Shown: piece after piece, positions 9,818-25,354 of the stretch | How the letters are laid out: every line of letters begins with the position of its first letter | Position numbering within the stretch: the first letter of the stretch is position 1 | Assembly: GCA_011390345.1 (NCBI GenBank) | Contig: JAABSP010000012.1 | Coordinates: 7,846 to 71,845 of the forward strand | Length of the DNA stretch: 64,000 nt | Source: Desulfobacteraceae bacterium | GTDB taxonomy: Bacteria; Desulfobacterota; Desulfobacteria; Desulfobacterales; JAABSP01 | Reading direction: 5' to 3' | The notes under the pieces: generated by a model | Database searches by the model: none | Told to the model about the DNA's origin: nothing | Seen by the model: only the letters and a program-made list of their open reading frames with translations | Program-made: the position numbers and the translations under genes

Positions 9818-10705
9818 ATGAATTTTTCACCAATAAAACTGGATCAGGAGGCTGAATACCGGAAGTTTCTCGACCGGTGTCCGGAGATCACCTCCGACTA
9901 CAGCTTTGTCAATCTCTGGGGATGGGCAAAGGAGTACGGCCTGGGTTGGGCATGGACCGACAACCTCATTTGGATAAGGCAGGAGGAGCCGGAGCCGCTT
10001 TTATGGGCGCCCGTCGGCTCATGGAACGAAGTGGAGTGGCCCCGGGAACTTGAAGATCTGGAAGTATCTCTCTCCTTCACCCGCATCCCGGAAACCCTTC
10101 TGGCGGTCTGGGAGAAGAATTTCCCGGGAAAACTTCGGGTCTCGGATGCCCGGGATCAGTGGGATTATCTCTATGAGACCAAGGACTTGATCAATCTCAG
10201 CGGCAACCGGTTTCACAAGAAGAAGAACCTGTTGAACCAGTTTCTGAAAAAGTACGAGTTCGAGTATATCCCCCTGAGCGGGGAGGCGGTCTATCAGGCC
10301 CTGAACCTGCAGCAGGAGTGGTGCGAATGGCGGGACTGTGAGGAAACCGACACGCTGGCTGCGGAGAACCGCGTCATCGAGCGCATTCTCACCTCATGGA
10401 AAGATTTTTCCGGACTCAACGGCGGCGCGATCCTGGCCGACGGCCGGATGGTGGCCTACACAGTGGGGGAGATGGTCACGCCGGAGATGCTGCTGATCCA
10501 CTTCGAGAAAGGCTGTCCCGGCTACAAGGGAATCTATCAGGCCGTCAACCAGATGTATGTGGAGAGGACTTTGCAGGAGAATCCGCACCCCTTCTCCCAG
10601 GTCAACCGGGAGCCTGACTTAGGGGACGAGGGGCTGAGAAAGGCGAAGCTCTCCTACAATCCGGTTGAATTTATGAAGAAATACCGGGTACGGATCGAGC
10701 GGTAA
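9818..10705 (+). CDS. DUF2156 domain protein (lysyl-phosphatidylglycerol synthase C-terminal-like acyltransferase fold)
   Basis: SDYSFVNLWGWAKEY...FHKKKNLLNQFLKKY...REPDLGDEGLRKAKLSYNP is a pattern I recognise from DUF2156 proteins. This is family-level only. Confidence 0.7.
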   Translation: MNFSPIKLDQEAEYRKFLDRCPEITSDYSFVNLWGWAKEYGLGWAWTDNLIWIRQEEPEPLLWAPVGSWNEVEWPRELEDLEVSLSFTRIPETLLAVWEKNFPGKLRVSDARDQWDYLYETKDLINLSGNRFHKKKNLLNQFLKKYEFEYIPLSGEAVYQALNLQQEWCEWRDCEETDTLAAENRVIERILTSWKDFSGLNGGAILADGRMVAYTVGEMVTPEMLLIHFEKGCPGYKGIYQAVNQMYVERTLQENPHPFSQVNREPDLGDEGLRKAKLSYNPVEFMKKYRVRIER

Positions 10706-10726
10706 GAATCATTGCTCCGAATCCCC

Positions 10727-11110
10727 TCAAACCAGATGAACGTCATACTGCCTGATCAATTCATCATTCGTGATGATGATCATATTTTCAGCAACTGCCT
10801 GGGCGATCAGTATCCGATCAAAGGGGTCTTTATGATGCATGGGTAGTTTGAACACCGTCAGCGCATGTTCGGTTGTAATATCCAGAGACTGGATATCGTT
10901 CAAGACAAGTTGTTTCCGAACGAAGTCAACAACCGACTCCGGAAGGATCAATTTTCCGATCTGAGCTTTTATGGCCATTTCCCATGCGCTGGCGGCGCTC
11001 AAAAACAGGTTTTCGTCTGTTTCGCCCAGCAGCAGCCGGGTTTCTTTATCCAATTTCGGATTGTCCAGAACCCACCACAGGAAGATATGAGTATCCAAGA
11101 GATAGCTCAT
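10727..11110 (-). CDS. vapC: type II toxin VapC (PIN domain ribonuclease)
   Basis: YLLDTHIFLWW...SAASAWEMAIK...DPFDRILIAQA...IITND contains the PIN acidic residues. It overlaps the upstream antitoxin gene by 4 nt. Confidence 0.9.
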   Translation of the reverse strand: MSYLLDTHIFLWWVLDNPKLDKETRLLLGETDENLFLSAASAWEMAIKAQIGKLILPESVVDFVRKQLVLNDIQSLDITTEHALTVFKLPMHHKDPFDRILIAQAVAENMIIITNDELIRQYDVHLV

Positions 11111-11355
11111 TTATAGAATTCCGCCAGCATCTCATCATCCAGGGGCTCTTCAAAATCATCCGCCATCCAGATCATTCCCTTTGCTGAACCGGGCTTCCGC
11201 TTTTTCTTAACGCTTTTTTTCCTGTCTTCATCCGATTCGACCAAAACAATGATTTCAACGTCTTTTCCGATCATCGTTTTCGGTATCGGCAAATTCAGGA
11301 CTTCCGAATCAATATGTGCTTTGATTTTTAGCGCTTCCATATTAAAATTCTCCAA
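11107..11355 (-). CDS. type II antitoxin (DUF2281-like) paired with VapC
   Basis: 82 aa with the C-terminal motif WMADDFEEPLDDEMLAEFY typical of DUF2281 antitoxins. It is translationally coupled to vapC. GC content is locally lower. Confidence 0.7.
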   Translation of the reverse strand: MENFNMEALKIKAHIDSEVLNLPIPKTMIGKDVEIIVLVESDEDRKKSVKKKRKPGSAKGMIWMADDFEEPLDDEMLAEFYK

Positions 11356-11415
11356 TCGACATCGAAGTTTATCTCTGAAAGCGGCTCACGCTGACCCCGC
11401 CATATCCGATGACAA

Positions 11416-12939
11416 TCAGAGGCCGATAAAAGAGCGCACCGTGATGATCGGCTTCCGCAGGATCTGCATTCCCAGGATGGTGGAATCGCCGTAGATCTTG
11501 GCAGATCCCTTCTGCCCCGGCTGCACTTCGGGCGGATCTCCCACCCAGACTGCCTCGGCCATCACCGACGGGATCTGATCTTCGGAAACCATAACATCGA
11601 AACCGAGACGGGTGATCACCGCGGGAATGGTCCGGAGCGGATCGCTGTCGAGCCGTACCCCCACCCGGGCCCCCTCCTTTAAAAAGCCGACATCACTGGC
11701 CGGGACCATGATCCGTACCTTGGTCTTATCCGGTTCCGCAACGCTCATAACAGCCTGTCCGGTCTGCAGGGCCGCGCCGATGATGGCATCGGGATCATCC
11801 AGTACGATGACCCCGGGATTTACGGTCTTTACCTCGGCCCGGGCCCGCTGACGGGCAAAAAACTCCACATCGGCCTCGGCCCGTTCCACTTCGAGCCGCT
11901 GGACCGGCAACTCTGCCCGGGCCTCCCGATCCCGATGCGCCGCACCCTCCAGTTTGGCCAGCTTTGCACGGGCAACCGCCACATTTCGATACGCCTCGTC
12001 CAGGCGCTTGTCCAACACCCGGGCATCATACCGGAAGAGCACGGTATCCTTTGCCACCCGCTGCCCCGGCTGCACCAGAAGCTCCTTCAGGATGCCGTCC
12101 ATGGGCGCGAAGATGTAATGGGGCCGATCCGGAACCGCGCGCAGAGGCGCGGTGACGCTGGAGGTGACCGGAAGCGCCAGCACCAGCAGCAGAACAAGGC
12201 CGGCCACAGATCGAATGATCCGCTTCCGGGAGCGGAGAGCCGCGCTTCTGGGCCGTGCCAATCCATGCCCCATGAAGAGCGCGGCATGGCGCAGCAGCTC
12301 CACATCGAGGCTGTCATCCCAGCGAAGCCCTCGCCATCGCTCCAGCCAGAGCGCATAAGCGGGCGGAATCTTTCCGTCCCTGTCGAGCCAGAGGGGAAGC
12401 CAGAGGATACCGGTCCCGCCCATGGCCGACTGAACTTTCTGGATCGGACCCTCCTGAGCCGGAGGGAGAATCATCGGCTCCTGCCGGTCTCCGTAGGCAT
12501 CCCGGGCCGCATCGATGGCATCGGCAAAACCACTGTCCTGAGCGGCCTGTCCCCCGCCTGTGACGGCCGCGATGGGCGACTTTCCGGAAAGGCGGACCAG
12601 CACGGCTCGATCGACCCGGGTGATCTCGGCCACCCGGTTGACCACAAGGGCCGCAGCCTCCTGAGGCATCGGCGCGGAGAGGATCGAGGTGCAGACCCTG
12701 AGAAAGCGCGCCAGCACCATATCACTGCCGGCGGGCCGGGCCCTGGGCGGCTGTTGCTGTTCCCCGCTGTTTCCGGCCCCGGGCGGCAGCGGCTGTTCTC
12801 CTCTGTTCCAGGCTCCCGTCGGCTGGGGCTTCGAAATCCCCTTTCCCGGGTCCTGCGGCTGTTCCGCGCCGTTCAGAGATCCATTCAGGTTCCGTGCCGC
12901 GCTCGAATCGAATCCGATTTTAGCCCCGGGTTTAGCCAT
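11416..12939 (-). CDS. HlyD-family membrane-fusion protein with ~230-aa cytoplasmic GAF-like N-terminal domain
   Basis: A Pro/Gln-rich disordered start is followed by a GAF-like block (LARFLRVCTSILSAPMPQEAAALVVNRVAEITRVDRAVLVRL...). A single TM follows (IIRSVAGLVLLLVLALPV). Next come lipoyl, coiled-coil and beta-barrel HlyD features (PMDGILKELLVQPGQRVAKDTVLFRYD...). The ATG overlaps the stop of the upstream HlyD gene. Confidence 0.8.
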   Translation of the reverse strand: MAKPGAKIGFDSSAARNLNGSLNGAEQPQDPGKGISKPQPTGAWNRGEQPLPPGAGNSGEQQQPPRARPAGSDMVLARFLRVCTSILSAPMPQEAAALVVNRVAEITRVDRAVLVRLSGKSPIAAVTGGGQAAQDSGFADAIDAARDAYGDRQEPMILPPAQEGPIQKVQSAMGGTGILWLPLWLDRDGKIPPAYALWLERWRGLRWDDSLDVELLRHAALFMGHGLARPRSAALRSRKRIIRSVAGLVLLLVLALPVTSSVTAPLRAVPDRPHYIFAPMDGILKELLVQPGQRVAKDTVLFRYDARVLDKRLDEAYRNVAVARAKLAKLEGAAHRDREARAELPVQRLEVERAEADVEFFARQRARAEVKTVNPGVIVLDDPDAIIGAALQTGQAVMSVAEPDKTKVRIMVPASDVGFLKEGARVGVRLDSDPLRTIPAVITRLGFDVMVSEDQIPSVMAEAVWVGDPPEVQPGQKGSAKIYGDSTILGMQILRKPIITVRSFIGL

Positions 12940-13726
12940 TGATCCGCACCTCCCCCTTCATCCCCGGCAGGAGTTCATTCCCCGGAGATTCCAGGGTCCA
13001 GATCACCTGAGCCGTATTGCTCAATTCATCCACTTCAGGGACCACCGCATCCACAATTCCGGCGATCGTCGCATCCAGATCATTGACATAGAAGCTGTGG
13101 CGATCCCCCTTTTTCAACTGCACCGCCAGCCAGGAGGGGATATTGCCCACTGCCCGAATCCGGGTCGGCGAGATGAGATCGACCACGGGCTGGCCAATGG
13201 TCACCCACTCATGGGGTTGAACATGACGCCGGACCACAACCCCGTCAAAGGGGGCATAGATCAACGAGTTCCCGATCTGGCGCTTTAAAATCTCGATATC
13301 GGTCCGCACCACATCCCGCTGCATCCGAACCTCAGCCAGATCCTCGTTGGTGGCAAGCCCCTTCTGATTTAGCCGCTCCAGATTGCTCACCTTCACATTG
13401 AGATGCCGCAGGGAGAGTTCGCTCCGCTTCTTCTGCAGCGCCAGCTCCCCGGTATCCACCTGCGCGATGAGGTTTCCCTTTTTAATCGGGCTTCCGGCCT
13501 CGTATTTCAGGCTGGTCAGCACCCCGGCCCGCTCCGCGGAGAGAACGGCCCGATCCAAGGCCTCGAAGATGACCGGAAAGGCATCCCCGCCAGAGGATGC
13601 CGAATAGCCCTCCTGAAAGACCCCTTCCGGAATATTCCCGGACTGTGCCAAGACCCTTTCCGGCATCATGCCGGCGCAAAGAGAAGCCGCCAGTCCCACC
13701 GCAACAACCGCGAGACAGAAGCGCAT
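12932..13726 (-). CDS. HlyD / RND-adaptor-type periplasmic membrane-fusion protein
   Basis: MRFCLAVVAVGLAASLCAGMM is a signal or anchor. Further features are ...GSPIKKGNLIAQVD..coiled coil..IYAPFDGVVVRRHVQPHEWVTIGQPVVDLI. I chose the start at 13726. The track start at 13867 overlaps the upstream gene by 115 nt. Confidence 0.8.
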   Translation of the reverse strand: MRFCLAVVAVGLAASLCAGMMPERVLAQSGNIPEGVFQEGYSASSGGDAFPVIFEALDRAVLSAERAGVLTSLKYEAGSPIKKGNLIAQVDTGELALQKKRSELSLRHLNVKVSNLERLNQKGLATNEDLAEVRMQRDVVRTDIEILKRQIGNSLIYAPFDGVVVRRHVQPHEWVTIGQPVVDLISPTRIRAVGNIPSWLAVQLKKGDRHSFYVNDLDATIAGIVDAVVPEVDELSNTAQVIWTLESPGNELLPGMKGEVRING

Positions 13727-13752
13727 CCATCCATATCCAACAATCCTGTCGA

Positions 13753-15960
13753 TCAAAACAGTCCTCTTTCCGTCAGATGTTTCCAAATAGTTTCGATGGC
13801 CCCTGTCAGAATGGGGCGGCTCTCCCGGGGGAGCCAGATCCAGCCGGGCATGCCGTGGGGCAGCCATTTGGGGCTCCGGTCCACCTCGAAAAGAAATGTG
13901 AAGTAGGCATCCTTGGGCCGAAGGCCCCGGGTGTCTGAAACGGAGATCATAGACCCGCCGGCCGCGTCGAGGAGGCTCTCATTGGGCAGATAATAGACCG
14001 GAAAGAGGCTTTTCTCCCGGAGCCGGCCGGTGATGGCCGGCGCCTTGGACGCGCCAAAGCGGATCTTTGCCGACTCCCCCACTGCCGCAGATACGCCCTG
14101 AACCAGCCGCTCGTGCACATAGGCCCGCACCTCCCGAACCTCCGGATCGGCAACGGTGAAAAGATAGGTTTCCCTGTTGACATAGGCGTTCTTGTAGAGA
14201 TCCGGGTTGACATCGGTGATGCGGCCATCTGCAGGCGAACGGATCTCCAGAAGGCTCTGGGCCTGGGTCAGCTTCTCCAGCACGGCCATCAGACGATTCT
14301 CCTCCTCCAGCAGCCAGTTCCGGTAGGCTCCCTGCTCTCCCCCGCCGCCAAGACTCTGGAGTGTGGCCCGCACCGAAGCCAGATCGAATCTCGCCCCCTC
14401 CACCTCATGGCGCAGGGTTCCGCTCTGAATCCGGATGATGAGGTCGCCTTTTCGCACCGACTTTCCCGGTTCCGGCAGCGACATAACGATCCTTCCGGCC
14501 GAGGGCGCATCGAGTCGGTTGGCGCCCTCGTAGAGGAGCAGGCTTGGCAGGTGAGTGTATCGGGGCAGCGGAATCAGAAGCAACAGGATCAGGGTCAGCA
14601 GAACTCCGCCTGTGATTGCTGCTCTTTTCCGGGAACCGATCTTTTTCCGCTCCCGCACCACCGATTTGATCTCGAAATAGAGTGGCCGGATAAAAAAGAT
14701 CCAGATCTCCACCCCCAGGATGAGAAGCCCCAGCGCGGGAAAGAAGAGATAATAGACCGCAATGGCGATGGCAAGGCCGATGAAGAGCCGATAGAGCAGC
14801 GCCAAAAACCCATAGAAGATCATCCAGTTCCGATTCGGATGGATCTCCGGGGCAGGTTCTTTCCATCCCAGCAGGCGCTGCCGGGTCCAGTGGCGCAGCA
14901 TGGCAAATGCCCGGGGTCTGAGATTGTCGATCCCCCATGCGTCCATGAGCAGATAATAGCCGTCGTAGCGCATGAACGGGTTGAGATTGATGAATACCGA
15001 TGAGACCAGGGAAGTGCCGGAGAGAAAGAACATGAGGCTTTTCAGGATGCCGTCCGGCAGCAGTGCCCAGTAGAGAAGCGCGAGCCCCGCGACCACCAGT
15101 TCGAAGAGTACCCCGGCAGCGCTGATCCACATCCGGCGTCTCCGGTCCGGGATCTTCCACGCATCGGTGGTGTCGGTGTAGAGCAGGGGCCAGAGTACGA
15201 TAAAGAAGATCCCCATGCTCGGCACATGGAGGCCCATTGCTTTTGCCGTATAGGCGTGCGCGAACTCGTGTCCGATCTTCAGGGTCACAAGGCAGAGAAT
15301 AAAGGCAAATGCGCCCTGTGGAGTGAAGAGGTAGTTGATGGTCCCCAGATAGAGTTCGATCTCCGGCAGGGTCAGGGCAAGGCCCAGTATTCCGCAGATC
15401 AGGTAGAACCATCGGGCCGCGGGGGACCAAAGGGGCTTCACCCAGGGAAGGGTCTTTGCGAGAAAGCGGTCTGGCCGGATAAGCGGAACCTGAAAGAAGA
15501 TGGTCCCCTGGAGGATCTTCCGCAGAAAAGGGGGCGCTGTCCCCTCCCCTGCCGACTCCCGCCTGACCGCCTCGTCCGGCGGTATCCGGGCAAGAGACTC
15601 CCGCTGCAGCATCCCGATGAAGGAGAGGATCTCCTGTGGAGTGGGCCGAAGACCCGTGGTGGTGTAGAGGTTGGCCGCGGCCTTGTCCAGATCCGGCTCC
15701 ACCGAGAGGCGGTAGATCAGCTCCCCCTCCACGAATCCCAGCCGGAAATTGTTCCCTCTCACCGGGTCTTCCAGCACCCAGGAGCGCTGGCCGTCATGTT
15801 CGATTGGGCCCGGGTGGAGGATCAGATCGGGCCGAAGCCCATACCACGGGGTTTTTAAAAAATCCTTTAAGCTGTTGCCGCCATTCTGATCCGGTTTCAG
15901 GTTCTGCTGCGAATCCGGGGCTGTATTGGCCGCATTCGGCTGTCGGTTCTGCTCTTCCAT
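13753..15960 (-). CDS. peptidase M50 (site-2-protease-like) membrane domain fused to a C-terminal HlyD-type membrane-fusion domain
   Basis: The HExxH motif sits in a TM helix (LKIGHEFAHAYTAKAMG) and multiple TM helices follow. The motif NLNPFMRYDGYYLLMD is also present. The C-terminal ~270 aa are HlyD-like (GDLIIRIQS..., coiled coil, ...IRSPADGRITDVN...). The N-terminal ~190 aa are soluble. Confidence 0.85.
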   Translation of the reverse strand: MEEQNRQPNAANTAPDSQQNLKPDQNGGNSLKDFLKTPWYGLRPDLILHPGPIEHDGQRSWVLEDPVRGNNFRLGFVEGELIYRLSVEPDLDKAAANLYTTTGLRPTPQEILSFIGMLQRESLARIPPDEAVRRESAGEGTAPPFLRKILQGTIFFQVPLIRPDRFLAKTLPWVKPLWSPAARWFYLICGILGLALTLPEIELYLGTINYLFTPQGAFAFILCLVTLKIGHEFAHAYTAKAMGLHVPSMGIFFIVLWPLLYTDTTDAWKIPDRRRRMWISAAGVLFELVVAGLALLYWALLPDGILKSLMFFLSGTSLVSSVFINLNPFMRYDGYYLLMDAWGIDNLRPRAFAMLRHWTRQRLLGWKEPAPEIHPNRNWMIFYGFLALLYRLFIGLAIAIAVYYLFFPALGLLILGVEIWIFFIRPLYFEIKSVVRERKKIGSRKRAAITGGVLLTLILLLLIPLPRYTHLPSLLLYEGANRLDAPSAGRIVMSLPEPGKSVRKGDLIIRIQSGTLRHEVEGARFDLASVRATLQSLGGGGEQGAYRNWLLEEENRLMAVLEKLTQAQSLLEIRSPADGRITDVNPDLYKNAYVNRETYLFTVADPEVREVRAYVHERLVQGVSAAVGESAKIRFGASKAPAITGRLREKSLFPVYYLPNESLLDAAGGSMISVSDTRGLRPKDAYFTFLFEVDRSPKWLPHGMPGWIWLPRESRPILTGAIETIWKHLTERGLF

Positions 15961-15964
15961 ATCT

Positions 15965-16000
15965 TTAAAAAAGGCTGAACCGCTGAGTTCAGCGGTTCAG
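15965..16000 (-). terminator. intrinsic-terminator-like hairpin between giant cargo gene and M50-HlyD gene
   Basis: Perfect 12-bp inverted repeat CTGAACCGCTGA/TCAGCGGTTCAG (15975..16000) with 2 central nt. On the minus strand it is followed by CCTTTTTTAAAGAT and then the ATG at 15960. Confidence 0.55.
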
Positions 16001-16077
16001 TCATATCATCATTTTTCAGGGTAAAGGGTACTGGGAGATCAGGAGTCGATTCCAACTGCCCGTTCGATCATTGGGCA

Positions 16078-19000
16078 TCAGCAATCAGAGGGATCTCCGC
16101 CGTCCGGTCTCCAGCGGCCCGGGCGCTTATCGGCCTGGTCCGGGCTCAGAAAGACCTCCGCAAAACCGCCGGGGCCCACATCATTGAAGCCCTGGGCTCC
16201 CTGCATGGAGAGCTGGGAATAGACATCATGCTCCTCATCCCGGTTATGCTTGGCAAACGCCTCTTCCTCGGCAGCGCCGAAGGCTTCGGCAAATTCACCG
16301 GGCCGGTGACAGAAGCCCGGGTCTCCCTCCTCCCGCATAAAGAGCTGGTGGAAGAGATCGAACTCAGTGAAGCAGAAGGGCTCGATTTTGGAGACAAAAG
16401 GATCATCCCATCCAAGAGTTCCCTCGAGGTAATCCCAGGTGATGTTGCAGAGCCTTGCCTCGGGATCATAGGCCGGAGCAAGGCGGCATCCGATCTTCAG
16501 GGCCTCTTCCAGGGTGCAGCACTCGTAGAGCTGCTCGTTGCCGCAGGGACCTGCCATCAGAGCGCGGAAGACCTCCATCGGGCCGCCGGTATCGAGTACA
16601 TCGCCGGGGAAGGGGATTGCGCCGAGTTCCAGCCCCTGGAGGCCGCTGTAGCCGGGGCGGGCGATGGGCTCCAGCATCAGTTCCTGAGCCGGAGGTCCTT
16701 CATAGGGAGGTCTTGCCGGAGGACGATTGCCCACAAACAACGTAATAGTATCGGTGTCGGTCATGGGGCCGCCCTCGCCGGTATGGCCCAAATCATTGGT
16801 CGTCATCGTCAAATGGGCTTCTCCGCGGAAGGCCTCACCAGGATTGTACCGCACCTGGGCAAGGGCTTCGTTGATCTCCGGAACCGTTCCCTCGATCACT
16901 ACCTGTGCGGTCCCGTTCCCGGTCACCGTGACCGCCTCTGTATCATTCACCGTGACGCTGCTGTTATCTGCGGTCAGCGTAACCCGAATGTCATCATAGA
17001 CCACATTTCCGGCATCATTATAATGGTAGGCGTCCACATCCTTAACAGATATCCGGTTCCCATTGGCATCGCTAAAGACGACTGTCGCATCCTGCGGGGT
17101 GATGAGGGTATCCGGAAAATCAGCGGTACCGGAATAGAGGTTGATGGGCGCGTCATTGACCGGCGTCACCCGGATGATCCCGTCGCCGGTTTCGCTTGTG
17201 GAGCCGCGGTCATCGGTAATCTGTATCGTGTAGTTCCGATTTGCGGGATTGGGGTTCTCAGACGGATTGAAGAAGCGGACGCTTTCCACTGCAGATTCGT
17301 AATTGGCCACCGAATCCACCCCTGTAAAGTTGAGGATTCCGGCGCTCTCATCATAGGATACGGTGATCCCCGTACCGGCAATGGTCATTCCGTCCGTTAT
17401 GGGGCTGTCTCCGATCCGCAAATCGTCGTTCGGCTTGAGGTCCGTGAAATGGATGGAGAGAGAGGAAAGATTCTCGCTGTCCGGATCATTGATGGAAAAG
17501 TCGTCCTCCACAATGGAAATCGGTGCATCGCCCTCCCGGAATTCCACTTCGGCCGGGCCCGGCCGTTCCGGAGGCTGGTTGCGGTCAATATCAATGGTCA
17601 TCTGATAGTCCGACTCGCTCAGCTTCGGCTCAACGGCCTGCGGCGCATGGGCGGCGTCGTCCTGAACCTTGAATCGGAAGGTATCATAGTTATCCGCAAA
17701 GAAGATATCCTCACTCATGGTATAGACCAACTGGCCGTTCCGGATGGCATCGGTGGAAATCAGGGTATCTGCCGTCACCGTTTCACCGTTGAGGGTAAGC
17801 GTACCCTGATCCGGAAGATCGGTGATCTGAACAGCCTTGAAGTTGTCCCCTTCCATGTCATCGAATTCGAAATCGCCCATATTGAAGGTATAGGTCATAT
17901 CCTCAGTCACGCTCACCTCTCCGTCCGCACTGGTGGGAGGGTCGTTGACCGGCGTTACGATGATCGGCATCAGATAGGCGTCTGCGCTGTATTTGACTCC
18001 GTTATTGACCCGGAACTGAAAATCGGCATATTCGAACTCGTTTATAGGATGGTTTCCATCGCCGTAAGCATCCGCATTCGGTTTAAACTTCAGTTGACCA
18101 TTTTCAATCTGCTCCCGGGAGATTTTGTCAAAGAGATTGACATCCTCGCCGTTGAGCAGCAGGGTTCCGGCCGAAGCGGTCTTAGTGATCCAGAGTTCCT
18201 GGAGATCATTGCCATCGAAATCCTTATATTTGAAATCATCCAGCTTGAAGGTGTATTCGGTATCCTCCTCGATTGAGACCGGGTCCGCAGGCCCCTGAGG
18301 CCGCTGGTTCACCGGGGCCACATCGATGGTCATGGTGTAGTCCGAATGGCTGTATTCAGTGCCGTCATGGACTTCAAACCGAAAGCTCGAATAATCATCT
18401 CCATGCTCATATTCAACCGGAATAAAGACCAGATCACCGTCCATGATATCCTCTGCCGAGATCTCGGTTCCTTCGGTGACCGCGACGCCGTTCAGCAGCA
18501 GAGAAGCACCATCTTTAATGGACAGATCGGTGATCTGCACCTTGGCCATGCTGTCTGTGAGATCCACATCGTTGAAGATGAAATCCTGCAGTTGGAAACG
18601 ATATCCAGGATCGAAGGTCTCCGGATCGACCTCCAGTGCGGTGACGGTGTTGTCGATGGAGGTCGGGGCATCCTGCACCGGAGTCACATCCATGGTCATG
18701 GTGTTGCCGTTGAGGCTGTATGCGGTCCCGTCATGGACTTTAAAGCGGAAGGTCGCGTAATCATCGCCGTAGGCATCCTTGTTCGGAACAAAAACCAGAT
18801 CCCCCTCGTCGATGGCCGCGATGTCAATCTCCTGATTGAGGGCCACCTCCTGGCCATCGAGCAGCAGCTCCCCTGCGGTCTCGAGCTGTGTGATCCTGAT
18901 CTGGGTGAAGGTTCCACCGTCCGGATCACTGAAGCCGAAATCCTCCCGGGTAAAGATATGCTGTGTATCCTCAGCAATGACCACGGTCTCGTTAGTTCCC

Positions 19001-20673
19001 GAAGGGGGGATGTTGCCCACGGTCACATTGATATTCATATTGTATGCGGACTGGCTGTAGGCCGTGCCGTCGGAAACCTGGAATCCAAAATTGGCATATC
19101 CATTGCCGCTGGCATCGGAGGCCGGGGCAAAGAGCAGATTTCCGGCTTCGATCTGATCGACATCGATCTCCTGGTTGAGGGAAACGGCCTGGCCGTTGAG
19201 CAACAGATCTCCCGCTGCCTCCAGCCGGGTGATCTTCACGGTCTGAAAGGAATCCCCCTCATCCACATCGTTGAAGGAGAAGTCGGAGATCTTGAAAGTA
19301 TAATCGGTGTTCTGGCCTGTGGTTACGGTGTTGTCCGCAGAGGTGGGCGGATCATTGACCGGTGTGACATTCATCACCAGGGTATAAGCCGACTGGCTGA
19401 AGGACGTTCCGTCGCTGACCTTGAACCGGAAATTGGAATATGCCGCGCCGTTGGCGTCCGCATCCGGAACAAAGATGAATTCTCCGGCCTCGATCTGAGC
19501 CCGGGTGATCTGCTCGTTGACATTCACCTCACGGCCATTGAGCATCAGGGTACCGGCCGTCTCCAACTGGTTGATCTGAACAGACTGCAGGCTGTCTCCG
19601 GTATCCGGGTCGGTGAACCCGAAGTCGTCCACCTTGAAGGTGTAGGGGGTATCCTCCTGCAGGGTGACGGCCTGATCCGATGCCTTGGGCAGATCGTTGA
19701 CCGGATTGACATCCACCGTCATACGATAGGCATCGGCACTGAATTCCTTACCATCGGAAACCTTGAAGCCGAAGCCGGAATACCCCGCGCCGTTTGCATC
19801 CGTTGCCGGAACAAAGATCAGCCGCCGGGCCACGATATCCTCCACCGCAATCACATCGCCGGCCCCGACGGCCTCTCCGTTGAACTGCAGCGTACCCGCA
19901 GGATCGATATCGGTAATTTGGACCGCCTGCAGCGTATCGCCGCTGTTTACATCCACATCATTGAAGAGAAAATCGTTCCGCTCAAAGACGTAGCTGGTAT
20001 CCTCGTCAGTCACTACGGTATTGTCCAGCGCTGTGGGGGCATCCTGGACCGGCGTCACATCGATGACCATGTTTGCAGCCGTAACGCTGTATGCCGTGCC
20101 ATCATGCACCTTGAACCGAAAGTCGGAATAAGGGCTTCCATTTGCATTTTGATTGGGCACGAAGGTGAGATTCCCGGCCTGGATATCCGTGGCCGAAATC
20201 TCATCATAGAGCCCTACCTCCTGCCCGTTGAGCAGAAGGGAACCGGCCGACTCCAGCTTGGTGATCTGGATCTTGAGGAGAGGGTCGCCTTCCGGATCGG
20301 TGTAGGCACTCTCGAAATCGGCAAGGCTGAATGTATGAGTCCCATCCTCGCTCATTGTAACCGTTCCATCCCCAGTACTCGGAGCCGCTCTCATCACCGG
20401 GCCGTCCGCAGCCTCGGGCCCATCCGCAGGGAGGTCGCCATCTGCCGAAACCCCGTCAGAGATCTGGGTGTCCGGATCGCTCAGCAGTGCGGCCGCACCG
20501 GCCGCGGCATCTGCGGAAAATGAAATGTGCTCCGCGCCTGCCATGTTATCCGGGACCGCAGACCCGTCCGGAACCTGTGCGTCATCATGATCATCGACCG
20601 CATGATCGATCACATGTGCCACAGCAGCTCCGTCGAGGACGATCCTGCGTTCCAGTTTCATCAGGTTCAACAT
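16078..20673 (-). CDS. 1531-aa acidic secreted repeat protein (cadherin-like/Ig-like tandem repeats; N-terminal LEPR-XLL-like motif; Cys-rich C-terminal domain)
   Basis: A strong RBS, AAGGGAGGTGA, precedes the ATG. The N-terminus is MLNLMKLERRIVLDGAAV. Eight repeats of about 113-122 aa are each closed by a V(T/N)PV(N/Q)DxP junction. Each carries the pattern xEDTxYTFxxxDFxFxDxDxGDxLxxVQITxLxxxGxLxLNG...F.P..N..G...F.FKV.DG. Two divergent modules and a 155-aa tail with 8 Cys follow. Confidence 0.9.
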   Translation of the reverse strand: MLNLMKLERRIVLDGAAVAHVIDHAVDDHDDAQVPDGSAVPDNMAGAEHISFSADAAAGAAALLSDPDTQISDGVSADGDLPADGPEAADGPVMRAAPSTGDGTVTMSEDGTHTFSLADFESAYTDPEGDPLLKIQITKLESAGSLLLNGQEVGLYDEISATDIQAGNLTFVPNQNANGSPYSDFRFKVHDGTAYSVTAANMVIDVTPVQDAPTALDNTVVTDEDTSYVFERNDFLFNDVDVNSGDTLQAVQITDIDPAGTLQFNGEAVGAGDVIAVEDIVARRLIFVPATDANGAGYSGFGFKVSDGKEFSADAYRMTVDVNPVNDLPKASDQAVTLQEDTPYTFKVDDFGFTDPDTGDSLQSVQINQLETAGTLMLNGREVNVNEQITRAQIEAGEFIFVPDADANGAAYSNFRFKVSDGTSFSQSAYTLVMNVTPVNDPPTSADNTVTTGQNTDYTFKISDFSFNDVDEGDSFQTVKITRLEAAGDLLLNGQAVSLNQEIDVDQIEAGNLLFAPASDASGNGYANFGFQVSDGTAYSQSAYNMNINVTVGNIPPSGTNETVVIAEDTQHIFTREDFGFSDPDGGTFTQIRITQLETAGELLLDGQEVALNQEIDIAAIDEGDLVFVPNKDAYGDDYATFRFKVHDGTAYSLNGNTMTMDVTPVQDAPTSIDNTVTALEVDPETFDPGYRFQLQDFIFNDVDLTDSMAKVQITDLSIKDGASLLLNGVAVTEGTEISAEDIMDGDLVFIPVEYEHGDDYSSFRFEVHDGTEYSHSDYTMTIDVAPVNQRPQGPADPVSIEEDTEYTFKLDDFKYKDFDGNDLQELWITKTASAGTLLLNGEDVNLFDKISREQIENGQLKFKPNADAYGDGNHPINEFEYADFQFRVNNGVKYSADAYLMPIIVTPVNDPPTSADGEVSVTEDMTYTFNMGDFEFDDMEGDNFKAVQITDLPDQGTLTLNGETVTADTLISTDAIRNGQLVYTMSEDIFFADNYDTFRFKVQDDAAHAPQAVEPKLSESDYQMTIDIDRNQPPERPGPAEVEFREGDAPISIVEDDFSINDPDSENLSSLSIHFTDLKPNDDLRIGDSPITDGMTIAGTGITVSYDESAGILNFTGVDSVANYESAVESVRFFNPSENPNPANRNYTIQITDDRGSTSETGDGIIRVTPVNDAPINLYSGTADFPDTLITPQDATVVFSDANGNRISVKDVDAYHYNDAGNVVYDDIRVTLTADNSSVTVNDTEAVTVTGNGTAQVVIEGTVPEINEALAQVRYNPGEAFRGEAHLTMTTNDLGHTGEGGPMTDTDTITLFVGNRPPARPPYEGPPAQELMLEPIARPGYSGLQGLELGAIPFPGDVLDTGGPMEVFRALMAGPCGNEQLYECCTLEEALKIGCRLAPAYDPEARLCNITWDYLEGTLGWDDPFVSKIEPFCFTEFDLFHQLFMREEGDPGFCHRPGEFAEAFGAAEEEAFAKHNRDEEHDVYSQLSMQGAQGFNDVGPGGFAEVFLSPDQADKRPGRWRPDGGDPSDC
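17575..20373 (-). repeat. eight in-frame tandem coding repeats (~340-366 nt each) inside the giant gene
   Basis: The protein junction motifs fall at about aa 211, 327, 441, 556, 669, 791, 911 and 1033, counted by hand from the track translation. Confidence 0.8.
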
Positions 20674-20755
20674 ATGTCACCTCCCTTTATCGGTGTTTCG
20701 ATAATATGGATGTTCTTTGTTTCGTTCAAACAGATACTGTTTTTTTGTGCAACGA

Positions 20756-22831
20756 TTACCAGTGATTACTCGTCGGCGGGATCACCCAGTACTCCATCCC
20801 GTTTTGTTTCAGATTCTGGGCAAGCTGCTTGGCTTCGGGCTCAGTCAATCCCATCAACCGCACCCGGTTGTAGAGCTTTCCGTTGAGGTTTTTGGTGCTG
20901 ACCCGGGCATCCCGGTTATCTGCCAGCCGCAGTTCCAGATCCTTGATCTGGTCGATCCGCTTGGCCGGCCCTCCGGCCTTGGTGAAAGAGCCCATCTGCA
21001 CCTTCCAGAGAAAACGGTCAGATGCTGCGTTGGACCAACCCCTGGAGGCCGAATAGTCATCTTCGTAGGTTGAAGTATCTGACCAGGGATCGACCGCTCC
21101 GCCGGTTCCGCCCGCTACTCCCCCTGTTCCACCCACCCCTCCGCCGGCAGGGGGTACTGTCCCGGCTCCGGCATCGGTGAAGCCCGCATCTTCGGCCGGA
21201 TATCCGCTTCCGCTGCCATAGGGAGAAGCGCCGCCCAGATCCATGGTGTCGATCTCCGAACCCGAACCGGCTGCGTAATTATCCGCGGCCATATTTGCCA
21301 GCTCTCCGGAGGCGAGGTCATACCCGACGCCTGAAACATCGCCGCTGCCCAGCAGAATGCTCGTGTCGCAGTCCTGGGGAAACATGCCGATGCTGACACA
21401 GAGACGTTTGTGCGCCACCATCATATCGACAACAGCCTCGTCCCTTCTCAGCTTTGCCGCCATCTCCTCCAGATAGCGCTGGGTGACGGCCAGCTCCGGC
21501 AGGCGGCCGGCACTGTTTTTGGCCTTGGCCATATCCAGAAGATTCTCGGCAAGCTGAAAGGTCTCTTCCAGCAGCCGGAACCGGTCCACCTTGATGGCAT
21601 AATCGAGAAGCGAGATATGCACCTGGGTGATGACGCCGACGGTCATCATCAGCCGCTCCACCTCTGCCATATTGACAGTCTTTTTCGTTCCCTGCAGCCT
21701 GGCAATGTTCGAGGGAAGGTCGAGAAGATTCCAGCTCACCCCCGCACCGACGCTGTTCCAGGTGTTGGCATAGAGGAGCCGGTTGTCATCATAATGGGAG
21801 GCCGCAAAGAAGTTGAGTCCCGGAAAGAGGTTCAAAATGGCCGCCTTGGTCTCCTCTTTCTGGATCAGGACCTGGATGTCACGCTGATAGAGTTCGGGGC
21901 GATGCACCAGGGCATACTCCTCCAGAGAGTCGATATCCAGTTCCTTGGTATGGGGAAGCGCCGCGACAATGGGCTTGATGGGCGGTCTGGCCAGGGTGTA
22001 CTGGACGTTCTGATTGAAGCCCATGAGCTGGGAGAGTTCCAGACGGGCCGAGGAGAGATTGGCCTGGAGTTGCCGGACCGTCAGTTCCAGCTCCTTGAGC
22101 CGGAGTTCGGCCTCGGCCGCATCCATCCGGTCCAGATCTCCAGAGGCCACCGCGCTGTCGATCCGACCTTTGACGATCTTCAGCCGTTTCTCCACCGAAT
22201 GGACATAGTCGAGGGCATCTTCCAGAGCTGCGGCCTGCCAGTAGGCCCCCACGATATCCAGAGCCAACTGCTGGGCCTGCCGGACCCGCTTCTGCTCCAG
22301 AAACTGCTCCCGCATCTCCGAGGCGCCGGAGCGGACATACGCGAGCGCTGTGTCCAGCACGTTCCAAGTGAGGGTCAGGTTGGCCCGGAAGGAATCCTTC
22401 AGCTCCGAAACCGTATAATCCTTCTGATCCTGGTCCAGCCGCCAGTTGTAGACATCGCTCTTCCGGAGCTTGTCCCGATACTCGAACCTGGCATCCGCGA
22501 CCAGACCGGGCAGCATCTGAAGCCGTTTGGCCAGGGTCTCCTTGTCCGCGATCTCCTCATCGAGCTTGGCAATGCGGACTTCCAGGTTATTGCGCAGTCC
22601 GATGCTGATGACATCCTCCAAGGTCAGGGGCTGCTCGAAATTGATATCCATCGGGGGCTTGAGCAGCTCCAGATCGGTCTTAGCCTGCTGCTCCCGTTGA
22701 TCCGCCATTTCGGCATCATTGAGAATCTTGGTGCATCCACCGATAAAAAGGAATATGAATGCGACCCAGAAAAACTTCGTCAATGCTGACCATGACGTGC
22801 TCCTGCCGGAACCCTTTCTCATCTCTAACAT
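20756..22831 (-). CDS. TolC/NodT-type outer-membrane factor lipoprotein fused to a C-terminal SPOR domain
   Basis: The lipobox is FLFIGGC. A two-repeat OEP/TolC-like coiled-coil body occupies about aa 60-500. A Gly-rich linker follows (GGGVGGTGGVAGGTGG). The SPOR-like end is FLWKVQMGSFTKAGGPAKRIDQIKDL...YNRVRLMGLTEPEAKQLAQNLKQNGMEYWV. Confidence 0.85.
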   Translation of the reverse strand: MLEMRKGSGRSTSWSALTKFFWVAFIFLFIGGCTKILNDAEMADQREQQAKTDLELLKPPMDINFEQPLTLEDVISIGLRNNLEVRIAKLDEEIADKETLAKRLQMLPGLVADARFEYRDKLRKSDVYNWRLDQDQKDYTVSELKDSFRANLTLTWNVLDTALAYVRSGASEMREQFLEQKRVRQAQQLALDIVGAYWQAAALEDALDYVHSVEKRLKIVKGRIDSAVASGDLDRMDAAEAELRLKELELTVRQLQANLSSARLELSQLMGFNQNVQYTLARPPIKPIVAALPHTKELDIDSLEEYALVHRPELYQRDIQVLIQKEETKAAILNLFPGLNFFAASHYDDNRLLYANTWNSVGAGVSWNLLDLPSNIARLQGTKKTVNMAEVERLMMTVGVITQVHISLLDYAIKVDRFRLLEETFQLAENLLDMAKAKNSAGRLPELAVTQRYLEEMAAKLRRDEAVVDMMVAHKRLCVSIGMFPQDCDTSILLGSGDVSGVGYDLASGELANMAADNYAAGSGSEIDTMDLGGASPYGSGSGYPAEDAGFTDAGAGTVPPAGGGVGGTGGVAGGTGGAVDPWSDTSTYEDDYSASRGWSNAASDRFLWKVQMGSFTKAGGPAKRIDQIKDLELRLADNRDARVSTKNLNGKLYNRVRLMGLTEPEAKQLAQNLKQNGMEYWVIPPTSNHW

Positions 22832-22953
22832 AAGTTCACTCCGTTTTTTACTGGCTTGCTGCCACTAAGGTTTGGGAACCGAAGACCGACGACACTTGAC
22901 CTTATATTATTTTCTTAATTCAAAAGTCTTTGGCTTGTCAAGATATTTCAGCA

Positions 22954-24534
22954 CTAATAAATTCCCCAAGAACCCTTCAAATAGTATCTGTACAACACCG
23001 GACGGCTTCTGGAATTGGTCTCAATCCCTGCCATCCTCTCCTCTTCGAGTACGCCCCTTCCAAAATGGAGCATGGAGACAACCGCATCGGTGTTGAGAAA
23101 ACGAGTATCAATGCCATCAAAATCGATGGCCAGCATCAATGATTTCAATCGAGCTTCATCCATTTCCGTCTCAGGAACCCCCAATGCCCACCCCCATTCT
23201 CCAAGGGTGGGAATGGAATTGTGATAGGGGAGGACAGAAAAACCAGCGGCCCGCACCGTTTTGACGATGCACTGAAAGGCCATCCGGGCAAAATAGGGGC
23301 TTGCGGCCTGGGTGACGAAGACCCCGCCGCGGATAAGACGGCTCTTTGCATTGCCGTAGAAATCAACCGAATAGACATGCATCAGATCCACACTGTCCGG
23401 GTCCGGCAGATCCGCAATGATGACGCCGTAGTGGGAATCATCCTTCTGCAAAAATCCGGCCGCATCCATATTGATTATGGTTACCCGGTCGTCGAGCATG
23501 GAATATCGGTTGACCGAAAGCAGCATGGGATGGGTCTGCCCCAACTGGGTCATCTCCGGGTCGAGATCCACCAGCGTCACGGATTGCACATCCTTATACT
23601 TGAGGACCTCCCGAAGCGCGAGACCGTCTCCGCCGCCCAGGATCAGCACCCGGCTCCGGTCTGGCGTGAGCATCATGGCCGGATGAACCAGGGGCTCGTG
23701 ATACCGCTCCTCGTCAACGGTGGAGAACTGCTCCTGACCGTTGAGATAGAGCCAGTAGTCGTTCTTCCAACGGGTCATGACAATCTTCTGGTAGGGCGTC
23801 TGCGCGGAGAAGATCACTTTGTCCGCATACCGGCGCTGCTCCGCGTAGGTGATCACCGGATTGGCAAAGAAACCGAGCATCAGCAGAAGACAGAAGACCC
23901 CGGCAAATGCGCTCACCAGAAGCCGTTTCCGCTCTAAAAGATCATAGAATCGCCAGAGGATCAGCCCGGCCACCAGAAAGTTGATGCTCCCCAGAACGAT
24001 AGGCGTATAGGTCAGGCCGAGATAGGGCAGCGCAAAAAAGGCGAAGATAATCCCGCCAAAGAGCGCGCCGTAATAATCCTTCTCCATCACCCCCGAGATG
24101 TTGATCCGAAGCTCCTCATATGCGTCGTTCATCCGGGTGACCAGAGGGATCTCCAGGCCGATGAGGCTTCCGATGACCATTGCCTGCACATAGATGATCC
24201 ACTGGAAGCATTCGAAAAATCCAGCCAGGCTGTAGGCGAGGATTGCACTGAGCGCACAGAGCACCGACAGGGTGAACTCGGTCATCACGAATGCATCCAG
24301 CAGGTTTTTGCGGAAAAAGCGGCTCAACCGGCTGCCGACGCCCATTGCAAACAGCATCAGCGACATCATCACGGTCCACTGAAAGATGGCGTTCCCCAAC
24401 AGATATGTGGCCAGGGTAGAGAGAACGAACTCGGCCACGATTCCGGCACAGCCGGTGGCAAAGAGCGCGGCCTTTAAAATCAGGCCGAAAGAGCGGTCTT
24501 CAGACACACCAGTAGACGACAAATCCGGCCGCAA
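22954..24534 (-). CDS. speE: polyamine aminopropyltransferase (spermidine synthase-like) with N-terminal multi-TM domain
   Basis: About 200 aa of TM helices are followed by the PABS/SAM fold (RVLILGGGDGLALREVLKY...VTLVDLDPEM...DLPDP). The start may instead be the GTG at 24507. Confidence 0.85.
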   Translation of the reverse strand: MRPDLSSTGVSEDRSFGLILKAALFATGCAGIVAEFVLSTLATYLLGNAIFQWTVMMSLMLFAMGVGSRLSRFFRKNLLDAFVMTEFTLSVLCALSAILAYSLAGFFECFQWIIYVQAMVIGSLIGLEIPLVTRMNDAYEELRINISGVMEKDYYGALFGGIIFAFFALPYLGLTYTPIVLGSINFLVAGLILWRFYDLLERKRLLVSAFAGVFCLLLMLGFFANPVITYAEQRRYADKVIFSAQTPYQKIVMTRWKNDYWLYLNGQEQFSTVDEERYHEPLVHPAMMLTPDRSRVLILGGGDGLALREVLKYKDVQSVTLVDLDPEMTQLGQTHPMLLSVNRYSMLDDRVTIINMDAAGFLQKDDSHYGVIIADLPDPDSVDLMHVYSVDFYGNAKSRLIRGGVFVTQAASPYFARMAFQCIVKTVRAAGFSVLPYHNSIPTLGEWGWALGVPETEMDEARLKSLMLAIDFDGIDTRFLNTDAVVSMLHFGRGVLEEERMAGIETNSRSRPVLYRYYLKGSWGIY

Positions 24535-25354
24535 TGTAGGAAAAGGCTTCGATAAAGGCCGCGCCGATGTTGGGCTTCTCCTGGCCGTGTGCGATGATCT
24601 CGTGGGTCAGCTTCACCGAGGGCAGAAGGATCTTGTCGGTGAGAAACCGGATGGCCGGCAGCAGCAGGATGCCCAGCACCGCCACAAAGGCATAATTGGG
24701 CAGATCCGTATCCCAGGCATGAAAGTCCCGCTCGGCCGCAAGCCCCACCACGATACCGATGCCGATGAGCGCGCCGCCGAAGCTCACCCCGGCCGCGACA
24801 TTGTCCTTTTCGATCTCGTCATGGACATCAAAGGGGAGCACTTTGGCATAGACCGCACCGGCGATCATCAGGATCAACTGGCCCAGCCCCCAGAAGGCGA
24901 TCGCGGTCCAGATGCTCCCCCCCTCGCCCGATACCGAGCCGAAGATGATCAGCCCTGTGGCCACGCTCATTCCCAACGAAACCGCGCCGGTACCGCAGTT
25001 CTGATCCCGGATCAGTTCATCGCTGATCTTGAATCGGGGCAGCATCACCTTGTCGCAGAGGATCCAGGAGACATTGAGAAGAAGGATGCCCAGTAGACCG
25101 TAGATTCCGATATCGATGAGATCGATGATGATCCCGTGGCTCGGCCCTACGATCGCGCCGCCGATAGAGAATACCAAGCCGAAATAGTAGCCCATCAGCG
25201 CCACCGCGACGGCCGGGTTGTCCTTCTCTACCAGTTCATGGGTCAGGTTGTAATCCCGATGGATCAGGCCGTAGATCAGCTTCCCCAGAAAGAAGAGAAC
25301 ATAAAAAATGACGATATAGATGAGCGCAGTGACGAGTCTGTCGAGAATCTCCAT
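24500..25354 (-). CDS. DUF350 repeat integral membrane protein (YjfL-like)
   Basis: Several repeats of the DUF350 pattern are present (N.A.A....G...G....I). The protein is all-helical and membrane-embedded. The gene abuts its neighbours on both sides. Confidence 0.7.
   Translation of the reverse strand: MEILDRLVTALIYIVIFYVLFFLGKLIYGLIHRDYNLTHELVEKDNPAVAVALMGYYFGLVFSIGGAIVGPSHGIIIDLIDIGIYGLLGILLLNVSWILCDKVMLPRFKISDELIRDQNCGTGAVSLGMSVATGLIIFGSVSGEGGSIWTAIAFWGLGQLILMIAGAVYAKVLPFDVHDEIEKDNVAAGVSFGGALIGIGIVVGLAAERDFHAWDTDLPNYAFVAVLGILLLPAIRFLTDKILLPSVKLTHEIIAHGQEKPNIGAAFIEAFSYIAAGFVVYWCV

Follow-up and report, generated by a model that had tools for sequence, protein, structure and literature searches.

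Which task is performed by a polypeptide in which a leader-binding type of domain, an intramembrane protease and a periplasmic adaptor are joined end to end? The question is raised by a gene in a 64,000-nt stretch of DNA from a Desulfobacteraceae bacterium (assembly GCA_011390345.1, contig JAABSP010000012.1, positions 7,846 to 71,845, forward strand), referred to below as the window. This gene occupies third place in a row of five genes that all run along the minus strand, which encode a TolC-like protein, a 1531-aa giant protein, the fusion protein, a short adaptor and a 507-aa adaptor (Table 1). The fusion protein was confirmed to combine a cytoplasmic domain with the fold of a RiPP (ribosomally synthesized and post-translationally modified peptide) recognition element (RRE), an M50 protease core and a periplasmic adaptor. 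It rather likely forms the inner-membrane centre of a machine devoted to exporting the adjoining giant repeat protein, with the TolC-like protein as the outer-membrane channel.

The joining of three parts in one polypeptide, as described in the first-pass annotation, was borne out: the open reading frame (ORF) was confirmed, all the peptides quoted from it were present, and the N-terminal domain (N-domain), the M50 core and the HlyD domain were each recovered. In Pfam, the protein matched Peptidase_M50 (PF02163) at residues 219–386 (36.0 bits, cutoff 27.2) and HlyD_3 at residues 573–647 (38.4 bits, cutoff 22.2), whereas its HlyD_D23 score was below the cutoff of that model, and with 39 bits against a cutoff of 94.9 it did not belong to the RND_mfp subfamily TIGR01730. 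When the single sequence was searched against the PDB, the adaptor ZneB was the sole credible match. When 5.8 billion proteins were searched, 320 relatives came up. The closest (66% identical) came from Desulfobacterales metagenome-assembled genomes and Desulfonema ishimotonii, and the names in use are 'hemolysin D', 'HlyD family efflux transporter periplasmic adaptor subunit', 'site-2 protease family protein' and 'putative peptide zinc metalloprotease'; 101 of the 320, with 28–65% identity, formed the alignment used for conservation. When HMMER was run exhaustively over 1.84 billion representatives of 50%-identity clusters, 2,916 of them fell into the family at E ≤ 1e-30, and the best 150 members were nearly all about 700 aa long and aligned from about residue 40 to past residue 600. 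Because members of this length match over most of their extent, the fusion is a conserved architecture; a frameshift or assembly artefact was rejected as its source in view of thousands of full-length homologs. The whole-protein AlphaFold2 (AF2) model built from the 101-homolog alignment had a mean pLDDT (predicted local distance difference test) of 91.4 and a pTM (predicted template modelling score) of 0.79. When the full-length model was compared with the PDB by Foldseek, only adaptors appeared in the top 50 (TMq ≤ 0.25), and no solved structure with the full architecture was found.

The N-domain was modelled by itself with a pLDDT of 93.2, and the AF2 model placed its strands at residues 47–50, 61–65 and 70–74 and its helices at residues 76–87, 91–101 and 108–120, followed by two more helices and one strand and then by long membrane helices. 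A winged-helix fold with three strands and three helices is shared with PqqD, TbiB1, TfuB1 and the RREs of CteB, SuiB and TglI. The PqqD/RRE-like module proposed at first annotation was supported by Foldseek, in which the 13 best PDB matches were all leader-binding, RRE-containing RiPP proteins, namely TbiB1 (5v1u/5v1v, with bound leader; template modelling score 0.63–0.74, probability 0.97–1.00), TfuB1 (6jx3), CteB (5why), SuiB (5v1t/5v1q/5v1s) and TglHI (8hci). The PDB proteins ranked highest by a profile of 40 N-domains were likewise TfuB1 (E = 0.005) and TbiB1 (E = 0.19), which bind lasso-peptide leaders, and the whole-protein family profile matched TfuB1 at the N-domain. Pfam PqqD (PF05402) was matched by 3 of the 40 family N-domains (best E = 1.3e-5), and two distant full-length homologs are labelled 'PqqD family peptide modification chaperone' and 'PqqD family protein' in RefSeq. 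The window protein gave no match to PF05402 even at E ≤ 10, and its N-domain scanned directly against Pfam and NCBIfam gave none either, so the RRE assignment rests on the family profile and the fold. The N-domain thus has the RRE fold and is probably homologous, although no member by the Pfam criterion, and its similarity to known RREs is weak but specific. In the 101 homologs D65 was invariant and R43, G57, P66, G75 and E78 were at least 90% conserved. Unlike in known RREs, the domain is joined here to a membrane protease and an adaptor, and its presumed ligand is the N-terminus of a giant secreted protein.

For the M50 core, the family profile matched MjS2P (3b4r, E = 0.005) and RseP (7w6x, E = 0.012) at the HExxH helix, and the hydropathy profile gave the same hydrophobic segments as the membrane helices of the AF2 model, whose beta-hairpin occupies the position of the membrane-re-entrant loop in site-2 proteases. 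The HExxH and NxxPxxxxDG motifs both lie in predicted helices, at the cytoplasmic ends of transmembrane helices; the latter motif carries the third zinc ligand in site-2 proteases. As the first-pass annotation required, the N-domain faces the cytoplasm and the HlyD domain the periplasm, on the agreement of hydropathy, the AF2 model and positive-inside counts. The mean number of Lys and Arg residues per loop across the family was 6.6, 7.2 and 5.0 for loops 2, 4 and 6, and 0.1, 0.0 and 0.1 for loops 1, 3 and 5, which places the N-domain and both catalytic motifs on the cytoplasmic side and the HlyD domain in the periplasm. Residues H231, E232, H235, N325, P328, D333, Y335 and Y336 were invariant in the 101 homologs, with M330 and G334 at least 90% conserved. 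The residues of both motifs named at first annotation as a test of a pseudo-protease were therefore found intact, a pseudo-protease was rejected on the same ground, and the site is predicted from its sequence to be catalytically competent.

A further explanation concerns this core in particular, namely that it only anchors the adaptor as a scaffold, or that it cuts a membrane regulator such as an anti-sigma factor. Regulated intramembrane proteolysis is the best-known role of M50 enzymes, and the Pfam and profile similarity to RseP and MjS2P is confined to the core. The invariance of all the catalytic residues, however, argues against a pseudo-enzyme, neither a PDZ nor a CBS domain is present, no sigma/anti-sigma pair is conserved nearby, and an RRE of the peptide-binding type is joined directly ahead of the protease, so that a scaffolding or regulatory role appears most improbable.

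The curated models that scored best for the core were those of RiPP M50 leader peptidases. The top NCBIfam model was the daptide intramembrane metalloprotease MpaP (NF041824; 157.3 bits, equivalog cutoff 300), followed by generic adaptor models and a weak match to YydH/LiaK (NF058609; 22 bits, cutoff 225); the scores lie below both cutoffs, and the fusion is not a member of NF041824. Both peptidases share the fusion protein's HExxH and NxxPxxxxDG motifs, and their targets, according to the NCBIfam names, are leader peptides and not transmembrane anchors. In contrast to the fusion, mpaP genes were matched by tblastn over the core only (query residues 126–399), with the RRE and the HlyD domain unmatched, and RiPP modification enzymes are missing at this locus.

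The HlyD-like nature of the C-terminal domain, also proposed at first annotation, was upheld by the HlyD_3 score, by Foldseek on the fusion model, which matched MacA (3fpp) at 9e-13 and also MexA, AcrA and ZneB, and by the AF2 model, in which a short alpha-hairpin coiled coil (helices 514–536 and 542–570) is combined with beta-barrel parts. The family profile searched against the PDB matched the MacA/MexA chimera 4dk1 at 1e-15. In the polypeptide, this domain comes behind transmembrane helix seven. Two separate adaptors are encoded downstream. The short one (HlyDs) passed TIGR01730 (127.5 bits, cutoff 94.9), and its N-terminus resembles, as judged by eye, a cleavable signal peptide, with no other transmembrane segment. 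In the family of the long one (HlyDL), about 180–225 cytoplasmic residues precede a single transmembrane helix at about residue 180–240; the cytoplasmic domain was matched by Pfam GAF in 10 of 24 members (best E = 1.7e-6), and most of the best PDB matches of its profile were GAF-domain sensor proteins, a hint that the apparatus is controlled by a ligand or partner in the cytoplasm. The TolC-like protein scored below the TIGR01844 cutoff (52.8 against 225), and its C-terminus (20756–21400) consists of a long Gly/Ser/Ala-rich linker and a SPOR-like, peptidoglycan-binding end (19.3 bits, cutoff 21), which is unusual for a TolC-family protein. In NCBIfam release 20, no specific model exists for any of the four machinery proteins.

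The same set of genes was found to recur in distant genomes. A pattern scan with one genome per species gave at least 600 stretches, of which 437 proved to be related to the fusion and 80 were retained as loci; five more were found by exact-protein look-up, and the five window proteins were compared by phmmer with all ORFs of these 85 loci (numbered with L below). The loci came from Desulfobacterales, Nitrospira, Planctomycetota, Scalindua, Beta-, Gamma- and Alphaproteobacteria and others, with Pseudomonas, Komagataeibacter, Halomonas, Rhizobiales including Rhizobium, Azospirillum and Pelagibacteraceae (SAR11) among the proteobacterial sources. A co-directional cassette of a TolC-like protein, a short adaptor of about 250–310 aa, a long adaptor of about 450–550 aa and the M50-HlyD fusion was recurrent; of the 59 loci with at least 4.5 kb upstream, 55 had the long adaptor, 49 the short one and 40 the TolC-like protein. 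The Pfam-annotated contexts of four look-ups showed the same cassette, with a giant DUF4347 or cadherin-like protein in each. RefSeq names for the cassette genes are generic ('HlyD family efflux transporter periplasmic adaptor subunit'), and this widespread four-gene cassette is apparently undescribed. No ABC (ATP-binding cassette), RND (resistance-nodulation-division), MFS (major facilitator superfamily) or ATPase gene was found in or beside the window operon. The lack of an ATPase, remarked on in the first-pass annotation for the window, also held for the equivalent cassette of the 85 related loci: ORFs with a Walker-A motif plus LSGGQ were absent from inside the cassette and occurred sporadically, several kb off, and the cassettes examined held no gene for an ABC or other ATPase except for one divergent variant with a helicase-annotated gene.

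The giant neighbour supplies the candidate substrate. A giant ORF stood beside the cassette in 34 of the 37 loci whose flanks both extend for at least 9 kb. The N-termini of these proteins, such as MLNLMKLERRIVLDGAAVA in the window, MLNLIKLEDRIVLDGAAVG in the Desulfonema ortholog and MTTIKNRRLRPRAHRFALESRQLFDGAAL on an E. coli plasmid, with ...MLALESRVVFDGAAAS contained in a Massilia neighbour, share a basic stretch followed by L-E-x-R-[IM]-[MV]-[FL]-D-G-A-A, and a Sec or Tat signal on the cargo was rejected since the N-terminus lacks a hydrophobic core. The cargo N-terminus aligns to the 24-position model NF012209 ('LEPR-XLL domain-containing protein'), for which the protein of a SAR11 locus beside the same cassette scored above the cutoff of 17 (23.8 bits). 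The name 'LEPR-XLL domain-containing protein' is also borne in RefSeq by the 10,600-aa and 12,900-aa neighbours of divergent Rhodobacterales homologs. NF012209 names the motif only, and NCBIfam release 20 holds no model of linked machinery. When all six frames of the window were scanned, the motif was matched once, at the cargo N-terminus. The strict pattern LE.R..[LFMIV][DSN][GAS][AST] was found in 32 of the 5,953 ORFs that reach 60 aa or more across the 85 loci (residue shuffles gave 0–2), always near the N-terminus of an ORF that was large or truncated by the contig end and that lay in a cassette locus. The strict motif was seen in 18 of the 37 full-flank loci, and near-variants explained three more (HEKRIVLDGG in L085 and L006; MEERIVLDGS in L042). 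Across a non-redundant set of 35 leaders, E(0), R(+2) and D(+6) were invariant and L(−1), G/A(+7) and A(+8) nearly so, with hydrophobic residues at −4, −3, +3, +4 and +5, a variable R/K/S/P-rich stretch before the motif and an A/V/T-rich stretch after it.

Most other cargos carry DUF4347 directly after the leader (L001:5066–5665; L002:4797–5396, minus strand; L090:5284–5883), and the conserved ...SHG... and ...Y(G/S)C... segments of this domain look like the His/Cys dyad of a caspase/CHAT-like protease.

With the cargo in view, it can be asked whether the cassette instead processes and pumps a RiPP-like peptide or a small molecule, the giant gene being a frequent but functionally separate neighbour. 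In favour of this, the M50 core has its nearest characterised relatives among RiPP leader peptidases, RiPP pathways are the known setting of other RRE domains, and the adaptor domains are like those of drug and metal efflux pumps. On the other hand, no conserved small ORF, precursor-like ORF or modification enzyme was found in the cassette in the window operon, the annotated loci or the RefSeq plasmids; nothing nearby resembles a conserved leader apart from the giant protein's N-terminus with its invariant E, R and D; and the giant neighbour is retained across phyla and in both gene orders. The export of a small substrate is therefore regarded as quite improbable. A small precursor ORF hidden in the window operon was also rejected, as the intergenic gaps measure 83–123 nt.

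For the export of the giant protein, the following course may be envisaged. The RRE would bind the leader of the giant protein in the cytoplasm, as RiPP recognition elements bind leader peptides, and once bound, the leader would offer the small-residue stretch behind the motif for cleavage by the M50 site, which lies on the cytoplasmic side of the membrane. The alternating hydrophobic and invariant charged residues of the motif would suit binding as an added beta-strand, and a pairing of R43, D65 and E78 of the RRE with the E, R and D of the leader is a speculation. The adaptor domains of the three paralogs would then assemble beneath the TolC-like channel, and the processed protein could leave through a continuous conduit, with the proton-motive force, the folding of repeats outside the cell or an unlinked motor as candidate sources of energy. 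The cassette is rather likely a tripartite, type-1-like export system with built-in leader processing, and the chance that it represents a distinct secretion pathway is substantial. The farther-reaching proposal, that it is an unrecognised, ATPase-independent pathway dedicated to giant LEPR-XLL proteins, in which the RRE reads the leader, the M50 site removes it and a three-adaptor hetero-oligomer forms the conduit in thousands of lineages, SAR11, Nitrospira and the hosts of E. coli plasmids among them, is put forward tentatively, as something that could well prove otherwise.

Several points weigh against the export reading. The window cargo aligned to NF012209 at residues 7–18 with 12.3 bits, short of the cutoff of 17, and it has no DUF4347, unlike most cargos. 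In 15 of the 37 full-flank loci the 5' end of the giant ORF lies past the locus boundary, where the motif could not be checked. Binding of the leader by the RRE, its cleavage by the M50 site and the translocation of the giant protein are steps that we infer. Proteases of the site-2 type usually cut membrane-embedded or unfolded segments, and the leader is no transmembrane helix. To our knowledge, the passage of a protein of 1,500–13,000 aa across the inner membrane in the absence of a linked ATPase has no precedent, and an essential component may therefore be encoded elsewhere.

The apparatus proposed here can be likened in function, by analogy, to the peptidase-containing ABC transporters (PCATs; C39-ABC exporters such as CvaB, LagD and PCAT1), in which an N-terminal leader is read in the cytoplasm, the protease is built into the inner-membrane exporter and an adaptor and TolC form the duct. 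The leaders of PCAT substrates end in GG, GA or GS, and a comparable small-residue end, G-A-A, is seen here. Unlike in PCATs, the cassette holds no ABC domain or ATPase gene, the enzyme is an intramembrane zinc M50 protease and not a soluble cysteine C39 domain, recognition falls to an RRE, the protease is joined to an adaptor and not to a transporter, and the presumed substrates are proteins of 1,000–13,000 aa, whereas those of PCATs are peptides.

The type 1 secretion of giant adhesins (LapA/LapBCE with LapG/LapD; SiiE/SiiCDF) provides the other comparison; in common are a giant cargo built from cadherin- or Ig-like repeats, a TolC-like protein dedicated to it and one or more HlyD-type adaptors; the functionally important, proteolytically processed N-terminal region of those adhesins may be likened to that of the giant protein. 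The Lap and Sii systems require an ABC transporter and a C-terminal signal, and processing is carried out by a periplasmic C93 cysteine protease, whereas three different adaptors, a leader that we infer to be recognised in the cytoplasm at the N-terminus, an M50 protease and no ABC gene are found here. Of the parts of a type 1 secretion system, the TolC-family factor is thus present and the dedicated ABC transporter is lacking. The comparison leads to the main rival of the export reading, a retention and release device, in which the giant protein would travel by another route, for example an unlinked type 1 system, the RRE-M50-adaptor complex would hold the leader at the base of the TolC-like channel and a cut by the M50 site would release or mature it; the GAF domain of HlyDL would be a cytoplasmic signal input, and the LapA/LapG/LapD logic would be moved to the inner membrane. 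The absence of an encoded energiser, the GAF-like sensor domain joined to one adaptor and the adhesin-type cadherin-like repeats of the cargo are all in favour of such a device, as is the G-A-A-[VA] of the leader, which presumably resembles the di-alanine sites of LapG-type proteases. A type 1 ABC transporter, LapG (C93) and LapD are, however, not consistently linked: neither a C93 peptidase nor a LapD-like cyclic di-GMP receptor was found in the window operon or the annotated cassettes, the one Peptidase_C93 gene seen is some 10 kb off in a single locus, and a type 1 ABC/HlyD pair near the cassette of a Phyllobacterium plasmid is a single case. The final 440 aa of the window cargo gave no match to RTX or to any other Pfam domain, C-terminal secretion signals having no reliable profile; and three dedicated adaptors with a dedicated TolC-like protein exceed the needs of a tether. 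Retention and release is accordingly judged unlikely, though its probability is not negligible, and the points listed against small-peptide export and against a scaffolding or regulatory role make both of these less likely than it.

If the export reading is true, the LEPR-XLL giants, which are among the longest bacterial proteins (the Rhodobacterales examples of 10,600 and 12,900 aa lie beside this machinery), would gain a dedicated secretion and processing apparatus; RiPP-type leader recognition would extend from small peptides to huge secreted proteins; a TolC-dependent system would have a protease-adaptor fusion as its inner-membrane partner in place of an ABC, RND or MFS transporter; and the question of how transport is energised would follow. 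Members of the family occur in SAR11 and Nitrospira, groups that dominate in the environment, in the plant-associated Azospirillum and Rhizobium, and on plasmids of E. coli, Citrobacter and Hafnia, and its occurrence on E. coli plasmids makes the system testable in a standard host and experimentally tractable. In open-access full text, which leaves most subscription journals outside so that prior work is possible, nothing was found on the fusion, the cassette, the function of the LEPR-XLL motif or the export route of the proteins that carry it; mentions of 'M50' in three reviews of efflux and secretion were residue numbers or DOI strings.

Table 1. Features of the proposed export operon and of its fusion protein, in window coordinates.
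Feature	Position	Strand	Basis
RRE-M50-MFP (membrane-fusion protein) fusion protein, 735 aa, ATG start	13753..15960	−	ORF, Pfam, AF2 model, homolog alignment
PqqD/RRE-fold domain, about residues 40–125, cytoplasmic, three strands then three helices	15586..15843	−	AF2, Foldseek, profile
M50/site-2-protease membrane core, about residues 183–468, seven transmembrane helices and re-entrant beta-hairpin 249–262	14557..15414	−	Hydropathy, AF2, PF02163
HEFAH zinc-binding/catalytic motif, residues 231–235	15256..15270	−	Invariant in 101 homologs
NLNPFMRYDG motif, residues 325–334	14959..14988	−	101-homolog alignment
Periplasmic HlyD/MacA/MexA-like adaptor domain of the fusion, residues 469–735	13756..14556	−	HlyD_3, Foldseek, profile
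Putative cargo, 1531-aa cadherin-like/tandem-95-repeat protein, no Sec-type hydrophobic signal	16078..20673	−	Cadherin_4, Big_9, Cadherin_5, tand_rpt_95
Leader motif LERRIVLDGAA, cargo residues 7–17, LEPR-XLL variant	20623..20655	−	NF012209 alignment
TolC-like outer-membrane factor, 691 aa	20756..22831	−	Pfam OEP 1e-37
Short adaptor HlyDs, 264–274 aa, start TTG 13756 or ATG 13726	12932..13756	−	HlyD_3, HlyD_D23, TIGR01730
Long adaptor HlyDL, 507 aa, GAF-like domain, one transmembrane helix and periplasmic HlyD domain	11416..12939	−	HlyD_3
Terminator-like hairpin, 11-bp stem then T-run, 14 nt upstream of the fusion ATG	15975..16000	−	Pattern match only

The cassette also occurs on plasmids. On plasmid p2 of Azospirillum brasilense Sp7 (RefSeq), a DUF4347 protein and a TolC family protein are followed by three 'adaptor subunits'. 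The cassette arrangement was also found on plasmids of E. coli CX15 and 17 other E. coli, in the order of a 4,459-aa 'Ig-like domain-containing protein', a TolC family protein and three adaptors, and on plasmids of Citrobacter, Hafnia and Kosakonia, with full-length fusion homologs on those of Citrobacter and Hafnia. In E. coli CX15 (L088, NZ_CP081743.1, record 69283–89034) the complete cassette lies between ISKpn26 and IS1 transposase genes; these flanking genes and the IncF/IncN type of the E. coli plasmids indicate that the cassette may be mobile. A divergent variant was found on Rhodobacterales plasmids (L089, NZ_CP049813.1; L092, NZ_CP085155.1; L093, NZ_CP049043.1), where a LEPR-XLL protein of 10,600–12,900 aa is accompanied by a 620-aa adaptor, an RRE-M50-HlyD homolog (24% identical to the window protein), a protein of about 670 aa and DUF3467 or SapC genes, with no TolC gene annotated near these loci. 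The 670-aa protein, annotated variously as a DEAD/DEAH helicase, a prepilin peptidase or hypothetical, could be a motor or a second protease. On a Phyllobacterium plasmid (L087, NZ_CP050303.1), a gene for a 1,412-aa 'type III effector HrpK domain-containing protein' precedes those of the fusion and the long adaptor, and the classical type 1 ABC/HlyD pair mentioned above lies about 3–7 kb downstream; the type of cargo may thus differ by lineage.

Within the window, the terminator-like hairpin between the stop codon of the giant gene and the fusion gene has 7 G-C pairs in its stem, followed by CCTTTTTTAA, and might set a high ratio of cargo to machinery expression; in a promoter and terminator scan of the region, the number of such sites was not above that in shuffled sequence. 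No obvious Shine-Dalgarno sequence precedes the fusion ATG, and Rfam gave nothing over window positions 10000–24000. The genes on either side of the operon are unrelated to it: upstream are spermine-synthase-like and DUF350 genes, downstream a putative toxin-antitoxin pair. The upstream genes (22954–25354, minus strand) encode a 526-aa spermine/spermidine-synthase-domain protein and a DUF350 membrane protein directly before the operon, and their order is the same in Desulfonema ishimotonii (L001), so that synteny reaches past the cassette in this clade. Directly downstream of the operon (10727–11355, minus strand) lie overlapping small ORFs of 127 aa and 82 aa, PIN-toxin/antitoxin-like by eye. 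At 3180–4925 on the plus strand, a 581-aa protein unrelated to the operon combines a YcaO domain (Pfam E = 2.6e-76) with C-terminal tetratricopeptide repeats.

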